The position numbers and the translations under genes are program-made. The notes beneath the pieces are model-generated. The model saw only the letters and a list, made by a program, of their open reading frames with translations. It did not search any database and was not told where the DNA came from. DNA of 64,000 bases from Escherichia coli (GTDB lineage Bacteria; Pseudomonadota; Gammaproteobacteria; Enterobacterales; Enterobacteriaceae), in assembly GCF_003334765.1 (NCBI RefSeq), contig NZ_QOWT01000005.1; one strand, written 5' to 3'. Each line of letters begins with the position of its first letter. Within the stretch, counting starts at the first letter, position 1. This document shows positions 45,358 through 47,727 of this stretch, in pieces.

Positions 45358-46050
45358 CTAGTGATAACCACGCGCGGTCATAAAATCCGTAATCGCTTTT
45401 TCTGCATCAATCAGCACCTTTTCCAGTGGCTGATTAGCATCGATATCAACCAGTTGTGCACCACCAAAGGTTAACTGTGGCGTTATGGCTATCTTTCTTG
45501 CCAGCGATTCCCTTTTGTGGTCAGGCTTACGCGCGCAGGCCACGTCTAGATCGACATTGAGTTTGATGACCAGATCAGGTTTATGGCTCGCCATCCAGTG
45601 AAACGCTTTACGTTCCTGGCTTGCCAGCCATGAGACAAAACGACCACCTTCAATGTTAGGTGGGAACACTGTACCATCGTAAGCGCCAGGAATTTGGTCC
45701 TGAGGATAACGGTCGGTTAGAACAATTAACCCGCGACGACGACAGGCAAGCATATGACGAAAGCGCAGTAAGCGACGGGCGACAAACGCTGTAATTACCA
45801 GCGCCGGAACAGGGCCAGGCAATTTTTTTGCTGTTTTCACCTGATTTCGTTCAATTGTTTTATGTAAGGATTTTCCCATGAACGGTAATTTTGTCACTGC
45901 ACGACCGACATTTCCGGCCTGTTTTCCTAAATGAACTCTTTCGGCAGCACCATATTTTTCGACAACGGTAATGAGATGTTCACACACCGTTGACTTGCCT
46001 GAACCATCGCTACCAATAACGGCAATTAATGGAGGTGTTATTGACTGCAT
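45358..46050 (-). CDS. yghT: P-loop kinase-like protein YghT (Walker [10 protein letters not shown]; TDRYPQ motif)
   Basis: 230 aa; paralogous to the two following ORFs; divergently transcribed from them. Confidence 0.8.
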
Positions 46051-46130
46051 GAATATATCCTTTAATTTAAATATCCATTAAAAATATTTATTTGGTTAAT
46101 ATGTTTTTATGAAAGCGTAATTCAGGTCAA

Positions 46131-46155
46131 TGTCACAATTAACCATTGTCACAAT
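46131..46155 (+). promoter_or_regulatory. Direct repeat TGTCACAAT-N7-TGTCACAAT in the yghT/yghS divergent intergenic region; candidate regulator binding site
   Basis: Two identical 9-mers (46131-46139 and 46147-46155) read directly in an AT-rich promoter region. Confidence 0.35.
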
Positions 46156-46223
46156 AAGGTTGAACGGATATTCTGAGCACGGACCACGTAATATTCAATA
46201 CATTATTTGCTGCCGGGTTTTTC

Positions 46224-46937
46224 GTGAATCAACGTAATATGTCAATAATTAATTCCACGCCAGTGCGTGTTATTGCCATTGTAGGATGTGATGGTTCAGG
46301 TAAATCGACCCTCACGGCAAGCCTGGTAAATGAACTGGCAGCAACAATGCCAACAGAACACATTTATCTCGGGCAATCGTCCGGGCGAATTGGCGAATGG
46401 ATTTCACAGCTCCCTGTTATTGGCGCACCTTTTGGGCGTTATCTGCGAAGTAAAGCGGCACATGTGCACGAAAAGCCCTCCACACCGCCTGGCAATATGA
46501 CTGCGCTGGTTATCTATCTGCTTTCCTGCTGGCGGGCGTACAAGTTTCACAAAATGTTGTGTAAAAACCAGCAAGGCTATCTGCTCATCACCGACCGCTA
46601 CCCGCAGGTTGAAGTGCCGGGTTTCCGCTTTGATGGCCCGCAATTGGCAAAAACCACGGGCGGTAACGGTTGGATAAAAATGTTAAGGCAGCGCGAGCTG
46701 AAGCTGTACCAATGGATGGCGTCTTATTTGCCCGTATTGTTGATTCGTCTTGGCATTGATGAACAAACCGCGTTTGCGCGTAAACCTGACCACCAACTGG
46801 CAGCGTTACAGGAAAAAATCGCCGTTACGCCGCAACTGACATTCAATGGCGCAAAGATCCTTGAACTGGATGGTCGGCAACCAGCCGATGAAATTCTGCA
46901 AGCGTCACTACGCGCAATTCACGCTGCGCTTTCCTGA
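46224..46937 (+). CDS. yghS: P-loop kinase-like protein YghS (Walker A GCDGSGKST; TDRYPQ motif)
   Basis: 237 aa; first gene of a plus-strand gene series running to 52695. Confidence 0.8.
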   Translation: MNQRNMSIINSTPVRVIAIVGCDGSGKSTLTASLVNELAATMPTEHIYLGQSSGRIGEWISQLPVIGAPFGRYLRSKAAHVHEKPSTPPGNMTALVIYLLSCWRAYKFHKMLCKNQQGYLLITDRYPQVEVPGFRFDGPQLAKTTGGNGWIKMLRQRELKLYQWMASYLPVLLIRLGIDEQTAFARKPDHQLAALQEKIAVTPQLTFNGAKILELDGRQPADEILQASLRAIHAALS

Positions 46938-46968
46938 TCACCAAAATGGATAGGGGATGATTTAACGA

Positions 46969-47727
46969 ATGGACGCACTACAAACACAAACTGTTAATAG
47001 TACAACCGCGCCGCAGCCCAACTACATTCCGGGGCTGATTGCGGTGGTCGGGTGTGATGGCACCGGTAAATCCACACTGACCAATGACCTGGTGAAATCG
47101 CTGCAACAACACTGGCAAACCGAGCGGCGCTATCTGGGGCTGCTCTCCGGCGAAGACGGCGACAAAATCAAACGATTGCCGTTGGTTGGTGTCTGGCTCG
47201 AACGGCGACTGGCGGCCAAATCCTCGAAAACCCAAAGCATGAAAACCAAATCTCCGGCGCTATGGGCGGCGGTGATTATGTACTGCTTCTCGCTGCGAAG
47301 AATGGCGAATCTACGCAAGGTTCAGCGACTGGCGCAAAGTGGCGTTCTGGTGGTCAGCGATCGCTTCCCGCAGGCTGAAATTTCGGGCTTTTATTATGAC
47401 GGACCGGGGATCGGCGTCGAACGTGCGACCGGGAAAATCAGCATGTTTCTGGCGCAGCGCGAACGGCGTTTATACCAAAAAATGGCGCAATACCGTCCTG
47501 AATTAATTATTCGTTTGGGGATTGATATTGATACTGCCATCTCCCGCAAGCCTGACCATGACTATGCCGAGCTGCAGGACAAAATCGGCGTCATGTCGAC
47601 GATTGGCTATAACGGCACAAAAATTCTTGAGATTGATTCCAGAGCGCCCTACAGCGAAGTGCTGGAACAGGCACAGAAGGCGGTTTCTCTGGTTGCCATC
47701 GTTTCTGACCGCCGAAGTTTAACTTAA
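46969..47727 (+). CDS. yghR: P-loop kinase-like protein YghR (Walker A GCDGTGKST; SDRFPQ motif)
   Basis: 252 aa; third tandem paralogue. Confidence 0.8.
   Translation: MDALQTQTVNSTTAPQPNYIPGLIAVVGCDGTGKSTLTNDLVKSLQQHWQTERRYLGLLSGEDGDKIKRLPLVGVWLERRLAAKSSKTQSMKTKSPALWAAVIMYCFSLRRMANLRKVQRLAQSGVLVVSDRFPQAEISGFYYDGPGIGVERATGKISMFLAQRERRLYQKMAQYRPELIIRLGIDIDTAISRKPDHDYAELQDKIGVMSTIGYNGTKILEIDSRAPYSEVLEQAQKAVSLVAIVSDRRSLT

Follow-up and report, generated by a model that had tools for sequence, protein, structure and literature searches.

The question raised by this locus is what three small kinase-like proteins, YghT, YghS and YghR, do beside the genes of sphingolipid synthesis in Escherichia coli. 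Bacterial sphingolipid synthesis was worked out only recently, and no head-group chemistry was described for the E. coli-type locus in the literature examined. Literature searches on the function of yghT, yghS and yghR gave no relevant biochemical or genetic report, and those on a link between thymidylate kinase and serine palmitoyltransferase and on E. coli sphingolipid products returned nothing relevant. The window, that is the whole stretch of 64,000 nt analysed here, is E. coli chromosome, and 80 related loci were compared by counting the genes within 10 kb. The reading favoured here, at a rough probability of 45%, is that the three proteins (the trio) act as membrane-proximal phosphotransferases on the head group of the sphingolipid, ahead of its flipping and export; the kinase activity and the substrate are inferred. 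The three genes, named after the RefSeq annotation of identical E. coli genomes, and the elements around them are as follows.

45319-45347, unstranded: hairpin terminator, a 12-pair stem followed by a T-run, common to the convergent pitB and yghT
45358-46050, minus strand: yghT, T-clade P-loop kinase-like protein of 230 aa (open reading frame and RefSeq name)
46051-46223, unstranded: divergent control region of yghT and yghS, 173 bp, AT-rich (read from the sequence)
46224-46937, plus strand: yghS, S-clade P-loop kinase-like protein of 237 aa (open reading frame and RefSeq name)
46969-47727, plus strand: yghR, R-clade P-loop kinase-like protein of 252 aa (open reading frame and RefSeq name)

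The preliminary description had placed three tandem paralogues of 230-252 aa here, and the three open reading frames were found exactly at these coordinates. Full-length pairwise comparison gave 44% identity between YghS and YghR (E 4e-61), 36% between YghS and YghT (E 8e-52) and 34% between YghR and YghT (E 1e-46); this similarity is far above chance and the proteins are genuine full-length paralogues. The genes are adjacent and truly paralogous, but they are not co-directional, as yghT is divergent from the yghS-yghR pair, in which yghR comes second after a gap of 31 bp. In the alignment of the three proteins 54 columns are invariant, among them G(S/C)DG(S/T)GKST, DR(Y/F)PQ and RKPDH. The Walker A motif G-x-D-G-x-G-K-S-T and the DR(Y/F)PQ segment, both noticed earlier, are thus seen in all three, together with the invariant RKPDH.

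In the spacer between yghT and yghS, a sigma-70-like site on the plus strand (46146-46174) matched the consensus only weakly; the promoter scan gave no more sites than in shuffled sequence, and no promoter is claimed. Expression of yghS is reported to increase 3.1-fold on SlyA overexpression, and the gene was flagged in the H-NS regulon (PMC5797941). On the other side, the terminator hairpin lies between the stops of pitB (45309) and yghT (45358). An Rfam scan of 45000-53000 found no RNA family.

The fold of the proteins was analysed using an AF2 model built from a 107-sequence alignment (pLDDT 92.2), which replaced an unusable single-sequence model of YghS (pLDDT 35.6). The Walker A lysine, a five-stranded parallel core, a lid arginine and the acceptor-side Asp/Arg after strand 3 were all present, which places the trio in the NMP/deoxynucleoside-kinase fold at the superfamily level. 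Within each of the three clades (T, S and R), conservation is about 100% at D23, K27, R104, D124-R125-(Y/F)-P-Q, D137-G, E158, R186-K-P-D-H and K198. When aligned to thymidylate kinases, R104, DR(Y/F) and RK from this set fall on the segments 'ASR' and 'DRY' and on the lid 'KRK', respectively. The NMP-kinase fold, P-loop, DR(Y/H/F) and basic lid looked for in a thymidylate kinase are found together.

RefSeq names the products of yghS and yghT as dTMP kinases, many orthologues have a precomputed Pfam PF02223 assignment, and thymidylate kinases are the nearest solved structures, all of which would suit genuine dTMP or nucleotide kinases. However, identity to these structures is 13-21%, and the TIGR00041 scores (24.2 bits for YghT, 25.2 for YghS and 33.0 for YghR) reach a third of the curated cut-off of 83.25. 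The best Pfam Thymidylate_kin match had an i-E of 0.02 over 43 residues of YghS (21-63). The dTMP-binding 'REPGGT'-type segment after strand 2, which forms the NMP-binding loop, is replaced in the trio by (Y/H)LGxxSG, followed by an insertion of about 40 residues (approximately 53-90) forming extra helices that are absent from thymidylate kinases. The PQ after DR(Y/F), DGP and RKPDH are invariant signatures on the trio side. The trio also differs in being strongly basic (median pI 9.8-10.0 in all three clades), in forming three co-conserved paralogues and in residing in envelope-lipid clusters and not among genes of nucleotide metabolism; E. coli moreover has an essential tmk elsewhere. A dTMP or nucleotide kinase role is accordingly highly improbable, and the RefSeq naming is a probable systematic mis-annotation. 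The earlier term thymidylate-kinase-like holds for the fold and fails for family membership: the proteins are an uncharacterised branch of the NMP-kinase/deoxynucleoside-kinase fold and are not dTMP kinases.

Deoxynucleoside kinases (dAK, dGK, dCK, Dm-dNK) carry an ERS motif and a catalytic glutamate after strand 2, neither of which was seen in the trio; DR(Y/F)PQ and (Y/H)LG are present instead and no sequence-level match was obtained. The lack of ABC signature motifs reported earlier agrees with the Pfam ABC_tran match, which covers only a P-loop stretch of 27 residues (15-41, i-E 0.0094); a full domain with signature and Walker B was not found, and the fold search ranked kinases and not ABC domains. 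Adenylylsulfate kinase, whose relatives had been named previously as a case that would refute the kinase assignment, was not the closest fold or profile match, and no DAGK-type domain was matched in the three proteins in Pfam or NCBIfam.

New here is that the triplication is ancient. The NJ tree separated the T, S and R clades with bootstrap values of 94, 84 and 94, and two to four adjacent copies were present in 75 of the 80 loci (three in 59, four in 4 and two in 12), covering alpha-, beta-, gamma- and deltaproteobacteria. The clades correspond to three orthologous groups, all with the catalytic residues kept, and five of the six clade-discriminating positions fall within residues 48-134, the acceptor-side half. 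The word 'triplicated' had hinted at recent redundancy; ancient orthologous groups with clade-specific acceptor-side residues are found instead. Natural S-R and T-R fusion proteins also exist. The remainder of the E. coli locus is composed of the following features.

47773-49122, plus strand: yghQ-type MOP (Wzx-like) flippase, 449 aa, full length (Polysacc_synt 3.2e-8, Polysacc_synt_3 1.1e-7)
49122-49946, plus strand: hyp274, conserved 274-aa protein, its start overlapping the yghQ stop
49955-50518, plus strand: YtfJ-family protein (TIGR01626, 216 bits against a cut-off of 151), whose hydrophobic N-terminus looks like a signal peptide
50549-51619, plus strand: LptF paralogue, LptF2 (TIGR04407, 319.8 bits)
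51616-52695, plus strand: LptG paralogue, LptG2 (TIGR04408, 304.7 bits), its RefSeq start overlapping the lptF2 stop
52693-52727, unstranded: strong hairpin terminator with a 16-pair stem (10 GC pairs), between the convergent lptG2 and spt
52730-53902, minus strand: spt, serine palmitoyltransferase (NF047599, 599 bits against a cut-off of 500)
53902-54150, minus strand: acpR, specialised acyl carrier protein of 82 aa (RefSeq; function per PMC9386255)
54182-55096, minus strand: cerR/epi, SDR-type (oxo)ceramide reductase homologue (open reading frame; SDR/epimerase matches)
55093-56817, minus strand: aasR, acyl-AMP ligase / acyl-AcpR synthetase (NF006624, 870.9 bits; RefSeq coordinates; function per PMC9386255)
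57188-58330, plus strand: yghO, N-acyltransferase (aca / bacterial ceramide synthase homologue; open reading frame)

The Spt enzyme of E. coli B has been characterised, cerR/epi has been equated with ECD_02852, and yghO is the aca orthologue ECD_02850 (PMC9386255). The Polysacc_synt and Polysacc_synt_3 matches over a multi-helix membrane protein identify YghQ as a MOP flippase; its NCBIfam MOP flippase match (8.4e-9) is below the equivalog cut-off. A longer GTG open reading frame of lptG2, from 51535, is probably over-extended. Sphingolipid export in Caulobacter needs LptF2/G2, which bind the housekeeping LptB (bioRxiv 10.64898/2026.04.12.717747). On this account, and because the trio has no ABC domain, the idea that it supplies ATPases for LptF2/LptG2 was judged unlikely. 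Apart from the trio, no kinase-like gene is present in the E. coli locus.

The lipid-synthesis locus described earlier is real, and the linkage of the trio to it is not mere E. coli gene order. Near the trio, yghQ was found in 61 of the 80 loci, hyp274 in 53, and spt with acpR, cerR and aasR in 50. Among the 43 non-enteric loci, where gene orders are rearranged, yghQ was present in 26 and spt in 15; with full flanks, yghQ was present in 17 of 22. Two to four paralogues co-travel in these lineages with yghQ, hyp274 and spt/acpR/cerR/aasR in shuffled order, and the module, defined operationally as the trio with yghQ and hyp274 near spt, is thus co-located across unrelated lineages. The YtfJ-family gene was seen in 36 of the 80 loci, all enteric. 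The conserved five-gene module of three kinase-fold proteins, MOP flippase and hyp274 is nominated here for the flippase and head-group steps. The flippase, the tightest partner of the trio, was absent from the preliminary description.

The neighbours of the T gene in other bacteria bear on the acceptor. A PAP2 phosphatase is co-directional with it in 11 loci and a second PAP2 is divergent from it in 7, while in 8 it adjoins an LmtA-like methyltransferase, which matches lipid A 1-phosphate methyltransferase at E 1e-31. Outside the enterics, an LpxO/OlsC-like lipid acyl hydroxylase also occurs near the trio, so that the recurrent neighbours match LpxE, SepP/PgpB/LpxF, LmtA and LpxO/OlsC at the family level, including enzymes of lipid A modification. 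Phosphorylation of a lipid or head group, as proposed earlier, is favoured because the nearest characterised relatives of the PAP2 and LmtA-like neighbours act on lipid phosphates, with the acceptor itself being put forward tentatively. The companion proposal, nucleotide activation of a head group, lost ground as no transferase partner is conserved in the core module.

Resemblance to enzymes of lipid A or undecaprenyl diphosphate would equally suit phosphorylation of another envelope lipid (undecaprenyl phosphate, a polyprenyl-linked intermediate or lipid A), the sphingolipid link then being secondary. MOP flippases classically handle polyprenyl-diphosphate substrates, and relatives of the trio of about 500 aa are located in Wzx/Wzy-type polysaccharide gene clusters, which use polyprenyl-diphosphate carriers. 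Among complete E. coli genomes, 4605 (about 85%) carry the trio against 4068 (about 75%) with the spt block, and about 540 keep the trio without the block. These genomes, and the 28 of 43 non-enteric loci with no spt within 10 kb, count against a sphingolipid role. The K-12-type loss, however, looks like a recent deletion that left remnants, and the sphingolipid genes recur near the trio in 50 of the 80 loci, 15 of them non-enteric and with rearranged orders. Trio-family members occur in Sphingobium, Novosphingobium, Zymomonas, Acetobacter and Gluconobacter, and the Sphingomonadales and Acetobacteraceae are sphingolipid producers (PMC9386255). Another envelope lipid as the main acceptor is, on this balance, doubtful, and the cargo of YghQ is likely to be the sphingolipid.

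The constancy of the flippase as a neighbour also suggests that the trio could be nucleotide-dependent partners (energising, gating or regulatory) assembled on the cytoplasmic face of YghQ, and not substrate kinases. A relative of 978 aa consists of a Polysacc_synt_3 flippase domain fused to a trio-type P-loop domain, and a MOP flippase gene of a glycan cluster extends into the start of a relative of about 500 aa. The basic pI would suit attachment to the surface of a membrane or of a protein, and the S-R and T-R fusions would fit a complex. Against this stands the retention of R104, R125 and the lid RKPDH in all clades, as expected for phosphoryl transfer to a bound substrate. YghQ shares Polysacc_synt domains with Wzx/MurJ-type flippases, but its relation to the fused and overlapping ones is at the superfamily level, with no significant pairwise similarity, and the E. 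coli locus differs from such systems in having no polyprenyl-phosphate glycosyltransferase or polymerase. MOP flippases work by ion coupling and do not require an ATPase, and we know of no case in which the NMP-kinase fold serves as a transport motor. A purely flippase-directed role is considered rather unlikely.

A soluble acceptor was also weighed, in which the trio would build a head-group donor that another protein, e.g. hyp274, transfers to ceramide. All close structural relatives are kinases of small soluble nucleotides, nucleosides or metabolites, and no TM-like segment was seen in E. coli YghT, YghS or YghR; both points count against a lipid acceptor. hyp274 is conserved and basic (pI 9.2), has no TM-like segment and gave no Pfam or NCBIfam match. 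The Caulobacter head-group pathway also uses soluble precursor enzymes such as the cytidylyltransferase CpgD (PMC12275187). On the other side, no nucleotidyltransferase, CDP-alcohol transferase or glycosyltransferase is present in the conserved core, uniformly basic proteins are unusual among soluble metabolic kinases, and the PAP2 and LmtA-like neighbours point to lipid-bound phosphate; donor synthesis is thus an unlikely role. A separate idea, that hyp274 is the detached NTP_transf_5-like N-terminal domain of the relatives of about 500 aa, was rejected (hhalign probability 1%).

Ceramide phosphorylation in a sphingolipid locus, the role proposed for the trio, is known from Caulobacter CpgB (CCNA_01218), a soluble cytoplasmic ceramide kinase (PMC10331486). 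Homology was ruled out, as CpgB is of the diacylglycerol/sphingosine-kinase family with a GGDG motif (PMC10331486) and a fold unrelated to the trio P-loop; no CpgB-type gene was found in E. coli-type loci. CpgB-type ceramide kinases are reported from Sphingomonas wittichii, Zymomonas mobilis and Azotobacter vinelandii (PMC11324152). Trio-family proteins occur in other members of Zymomonas, Azotobacter and the order Sphingomonadales; by these reports some genera have both systems, and the trio does not just stand in for CpgB. LpxK, the lipid A 4'-kinase, is an earlier example of a P-loop kinase whose target is the head group of a membrane lipid. If the acceptor is a lipid, the trio would add to the bacterial sphingolipid kinases a second type, arisen by convergence.

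Under the favoured phosphotransferase reading, YghT, YghS and YghR would act with ATP at the cytoplasmic face of the inner membrane. Membrane proximity is suggested by the basic pI, by N-terminal hydrophobic hairpins in some T-clade members and by the one relative fused to a MOP flippase. The acceptor would be the head group of the locus sphingolipid (ceramide, the 3-oxo precursor of ceramide, or a form that carries phosphate already), and the three proteins would probably form a hetero-complex or act in successive steps with differing acceptor specificities. Their anionic product would pass to the co-conserved YghQ and be exported via LptF2/LptG2; in other bacteria the phosphate would be further trimmed by the PAP2 phosphatases or capped by the LmtA-like methyltransferase beside the T-clade gene. 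Classical sphingomonad glycosphingolipids are not known to carry phosphate, so phosphorylation would need to be transient or its product minor. The organism is tractable, and the hypothesis can be put to a direct test in it.

In a more speculative and improbable extension, phosphorylation would be the ticket for flipping: (oxo-)ceramide would become a (poly)phosphorylated lipid, be flipped by YghQ and have its phosphate removed or capped by PAP2 or LmtA-like enzymes in the periplasm. An NMP-kinase-style phosphate-on-phosphate step could give a lipid diphosphate, whose head group would mimic the polyprenyl-diphosphate handle recognised by MOP flippases. For the movement of oxo-ceramide to the periplasmic reductase, the authors who worked on the pathway state that the flippase has yet to be identified (PMC11087976). 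If true, the scheme would parallel the undecaprenyl-phosphate cycle without using a carrier, and would supply this missing step. With a lipid acceptor, the trio would also be the first known kinase partner of a MOP flippase, since to our knowledge none has been described. Given the relatives of about 500 aa in polysaccharide clusters, the acceptor class of the wider family may extend beyond sphingolipids.

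The organisation of the locus carrying the three P-loop paralogues YghT, YghS and YghR (the trio; T, S and R for their clades) was analysed. The window is Escherichia coli chromosome, its positions 45000-50000 being 100% identical to several complete genomes and present at 80% coverage or more in 4144 of 5426 complete E. coli genomes. The features are as follows.

Upstream of the trio: gss and pitB
45358-46050, minus strand: yghT, 230-aa ORF, exact coordinate match
46224-46937, plus strand: yghS, 237-aa ORF, exact coordinate match
46969-47727, plus strand: yghR, 252-aa ORF, exact coordinate match
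Downstream of yghR, plus strand: yghQ, full-length YghQ-type membrane protein
49122-49946, plus strand: hyp274, conserved 274-aa protein, start overlapping the yghQ stop
49955-50518, plus strand: YtfJ-family protein (216 bits), hydrophobic N-terminus resembling a signal peptide
Downstream of the YtfJ-family gene, plus strand: LptF paralogue (lptF2), then LptG paralogue (lptG2)
After the LptG paralogue: 16-pair hairpin terminator
Beyond this terminator, minus strand: spt, acyl carrier protein, SDR and acyl-AMP ligase genes
Beyond the acyl-AMP ligase gene, plus strand: yghO

The five plus-strand genes 3' of yghR, from yghQ to the LptG paralogue, are separated by 0-45 bp, and no strong terminator interrupts them; no Rfam family was found in 45000-53000. 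The longest ORF of the LptG paralogue has a GTG start at 51535 and an 85-bp overlap with lptF2; the RefSeq start at 51616, with an ATGA-type overlap, fits the LptG family model better, as the model aligns only from residue 31 of the longer ORF onwards. The YtfJ-family protein of this operon is the second of its family and joins the module in enteric lineages only (36 of the best 80 loci of relatives). The genes spt, acpR, aasR, epi (cerR) and yghO of E. coli B are the known dihydroceramide gene set (PMC9386255). Sphingolipid export in Caulobacter requires the LptF2/LptG2 paralogues, and the E. coli UTI89 locus is drawn in the same preprint (bioRxiv 10.64898/2026.04.12.717747). Neither the gene names nor the sphingolipid locus of E. 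coli is new; in the searchable literature the trio is unmentioned in this context, and a search for experimental work on it or on the native E. coli sphingolipid product returned nothing relevant. What is new is the division of the trio into three ancient clades, its place in a conserved module that includes hyp274 and a MOP flippase, and the accompanying accessory lipid-phosphate enzymes.

The preliminary description had presented the trio as tandem paralogues sharing Walker A and DR(Y/F)PQ motifs and lacking the ABC signature. The similarity extends over the whole length for S-R (44% identity, E 4e-61), S-T (36%, E 8e-52) and R-T (34%, E 1e-46), and both motifs are among 54 invariant columns, Walker A reading G-(S/C)-D-G-(S/T)-G-K-S-T, along with RKPDH. 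The absence of an ABC domain was borne out, the ABC_tran match being a 27-residue P-loop stretch only (i-E 0.0094). The genes are adjacent but not a co-directional tandem, since yghT is divergent from yghS-yghR across a strongly AT-rich 173-bp spacer (46051-46223). Overexpression of SlyA reportedly raised yghS 3.1-fold, the gene being flagged as H-NS-regulated in K-12 (PMC5797941); together with the AT-rich spacer, this suggests silencing of the locus under laboratory culture conditions and may explain why no lipid product has been recorded.

Against the NCBIfam dTMP kinase model the trio scored 24-33 bits (24-25 bits for YghS and YghT) compared to a curated cut-off of 83.25, and Pfam gave no match for YghS at E 0.001 or better. 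The best sequence match among solved structures was thymidylate kinase (E 0.0026). Structure prediction of YghS from the single sequence was not usable (pLDDT 35.6); the model from a 107-sequence alignment was confident (pLDDT 92.2, pTM 0.88), and Foldseek placed thymidylate kinases of the PDB on top (E 4.7e-7, 15-19% identity), in accordance with the kinase-type fold anticipated earlier. By this model and these ranks, the fold of the trio is that of NMP/deoxynucleoside kinases. Thymidylate kinase is the structurally closest known family, from which the trio is set apart by a score of one-third of the threshold and by the nucleotide-binding segment; in place of the thymidylate kinase loop the aligned segment reads (Y/H)LGxxSG, after which extra helices occupy about residues 53-90. 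RefSeq names the yghS and yghT products 'dTMP kinase' or 'thymidylate kinase'. That the trio are real dTMP kinases would agree with the structural likeness; with these scores and the divergent segment the name is unsupported and the reading hardly credible, and the name looks like a systematic over-annotation spread to UniProt entries in many genera.

The trio profile, searched against 1.84 billion cluster representatives at E 0.001 or better, retrieved 2157 relatives, 138 of them at E 1e-30 or better. A one-genome-per-species scan gave 316 relatives, and the best 80 loci were retained. These come from Enterobacterales, Rhodanobacter, Luteibacter, Carnimonas, Halioglobus, Nitrotoga, Gallionellaceae, Sulfuritalea, Methylotenera, Rhodocyclaceae, Sphingobium, Sphingopyxis, Novosphingobium, Sphingorhabdus, Acetobacter, Myxococcales and Planctomycetota; AFDB matches, all uncharacterised, add Zymomonas, Gluconobacter, Commensalibacter, Novosphingobium, Azotobacter and some Pseudomonas. 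Of the 80 loci, 59 have three P-loop copies, 12 have two, 5 have one and 4 have four. An ancient triplication emerged from neighbour-joining analysis of 123 domains, in which the clades containing E. coli T, S and R have bootstrap 94, 84 and 94; 25 loci carry exactly one of each. Residues K27, D23, R104, D124-R125-(Y/F)-P-Q, D137-G, E158, R186-K-P-D-H and K198 are kept at about 100% within each clade, and judged from sequence none of the three looks like a dead enzyme. The clades are told apart by only six positions (30, 48, 51, 74, 108, 134), and five of these fall within residues 48-134, the half equivalent to the acceptor-binding region of NMP kinases; position 51, beside invariant G50, reads K, Q and L in T, S and R, respectively. 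Fusion proteins of S-R and T-R type occur naturally. The clades, kept catalytic residues, discriminating positions and fusions point to three non-redundant, cooperating activities and not to recent redundant copies.

Out of the best 80 loci, the number with a given gene within 10 kb was 61 for a YghQ homologue, 53 for hyp274, 50 for spt, 49 for acpR, 47 for cerR, 43 for aasR, 35 for lptF2/G2 and 27 for yghO. The co-location is more than shared enteric ancestry, because spt and yghQ also lie near the trio in non-enteric loci (15 and 26 of 43; 10 and 17 of the 22 with full flanks), in gene orders unlike that of E. coli. Sphingobium and Sphingopyxis carry the trio with yghQ (56-57% identity) and hyp274 (45%), and Acetobacter with yghQ alone (54%), all with no spt nearby; for the former two this fits the reported scattering of sphingolipid genes in Sphingomonadaceae. 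YghQ has Polysacc_synt and Polysacc_synt_3 domains, as in MOP (Wzx-like) flippases, and from the neighbour counts and lineages the conserved core is the trio, MOP flippase and hyp274, tied to sphingolipid-producing lineages. This company would also suit nucleotide-dependent flippase partners in place of substrate kinases, a reading which, set beside the kept catalytic residues, is unlikely. The hyp274 protein is basic (pI 9.2) and had no match in Pfam and NCBIfam searches. Its conservation extends to beta- and gammaproteobacterial homologues of 29-34% identity, and about 44 positions are conserved at 90% or more; equating it with the NTP_transf_5-like domain of ~500-aa relatives of the trio was rejected (hhalign probability 1%).

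Fold, intact catalytic residues, ancient triplication and synteny are thus established, and the preferred reading, given a probability of about 0.45, infers from them the activity, lipid acceptor, order of steps and hand-over. The trio would act as ATP-dependent phosphotransferases on the sphingolipid head group, on the cytoplasmic side of the inner membrane, either together in a complex or one after another on different acceptors. YghQ would receive the phosphorylated lipid and flip it, and LptF2/G2 would export it, joined by LptB if the Caulobacter case is a guide. All three clades are uniformly basic (median pI 9.8-10.0, minimum 9.08), which is unusual in soluble metabolic kinases and typical of proteins docking on anionic membranes. 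A few T-clade members have N-terminal hydrophobic hairpins; E. coli YghT, YghS and YghR have no TM-like segment, as kinases of a soluble head-group precursor might, a role that alongside such basicity is quite unlikely. The hand-over to YghQ fits a gap in the pathway, where Spt and ceramide synthase are cytoplasmic, the CerR reductase works in the periplasm, and a flippase is, by the authors' own statement, still missing (PMC11087976). The trio and flippase thereby provide concrete, testable candidates for this acknowledged missing step, with a presumed substrate. The closest known function is that of CpgB, the soluble ceramide kinase of Caulobacter, which is of DAG-kinase type with a GGDG motif and unrelated in fold. 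The trio (45340-47740) is present in 4605 of the 5426 E. coli genomes and the spt-acpR-cerR-aasR block (52700-57000) in 4068, so about 540 keep the trio after loss of the sphingolipid synthesis genes, a type to which K-12 presumably belongs. These genomes count against sphingolipid kinases, as do most non-enteric loci, having no spt within 10 kb, and the occurrence in some trio-family genera of species reported with the CpgB-type ceramide kinase (PMC11324152).

Clustering of ORFs from 42 non-enteric loci gave four accessory families, which are relatives and not orthologues of their matches since all score under equivalog cut-offs. One is a small PAP2 phosphatase whose hydrophobic N-terminus resembles a signal peptide (18 loci, adjoining the T-clade gene co-directionally in 11); its best match, a weak one, is LpxE, lipid A 1-phosphatase. 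A membrane PAP2 with matches to undecaprenyl-diphosphatase, PgpB and LpxF occurs in 9 loci and is divergent from T in 7, a membrane methyltransferase (15 loci, beside T in 8) best matches LmtA, lipid A 1-phosphate O-methyltransferase (E 1e-31), and an OlsC/LpxO-like lipid acyl 2-hydroxylase (E 3.5e-65) occurs in 13 loci, after R in 12. By these matches, the nearest characterised relatives of three of the four act on membrane-lipid-attached phosphate. The trio is the only plausible phosphate source in these loci, and the E. coli locus holds no other kinase-like gene. Several of these matches would agree with a role of the trio on polyprenyl phosphate, lipid A or some other envelope lipid; beside the link to sphingolipid-producing lineages such a role is quite unlikely. 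Some non-enteric loci (L043, L067, L070, L072, L081 and others) also encode a small protein of about 170 aa (family F10) with a hydrophobic N-terminus resembling a signal peptide and no NCBIfam match, and in some an RND pump and outer-membrane factor (families F15/F19, labelled by eye) lie beside the sphingolipid genes.

Among the best 150 representatives, 52 have an N-terminal domain of about 250 aa weakly matching NTP_transf_5, one is a fusion of MOP flippase, NTP_transf_5-like and P-loop parts, and one has a long N-terminal extension, glycosyltransferase-like by eye. The ~500-aa relatives (NTP_transf_5-like plus P-loop) score best against the T clade and, where the context is readable, sit in glycan clusters. 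A MOP flippase gene overlaps the start of the relative in locus L082, with GT4 and Wzy_C genes downstream; that in L089 lies near several glycosyltransferases and a CDP-alcohol phosphatidyltransferase. Each of the four contexts read (L082, L085, L088 and L089, all metagenome contigs) shows a second, different P-loop protein after the relative. This protein is 200-250 aa long, has the motifs GLPGxGKTT and DQG, lacks a Pfam assignment and forms with the relative an uncharacterised two-kinase pair. Since these relatives are also paired and near MOP flippases, working in sets beside such flippases is a family trait and not an E. coli peculiarity.
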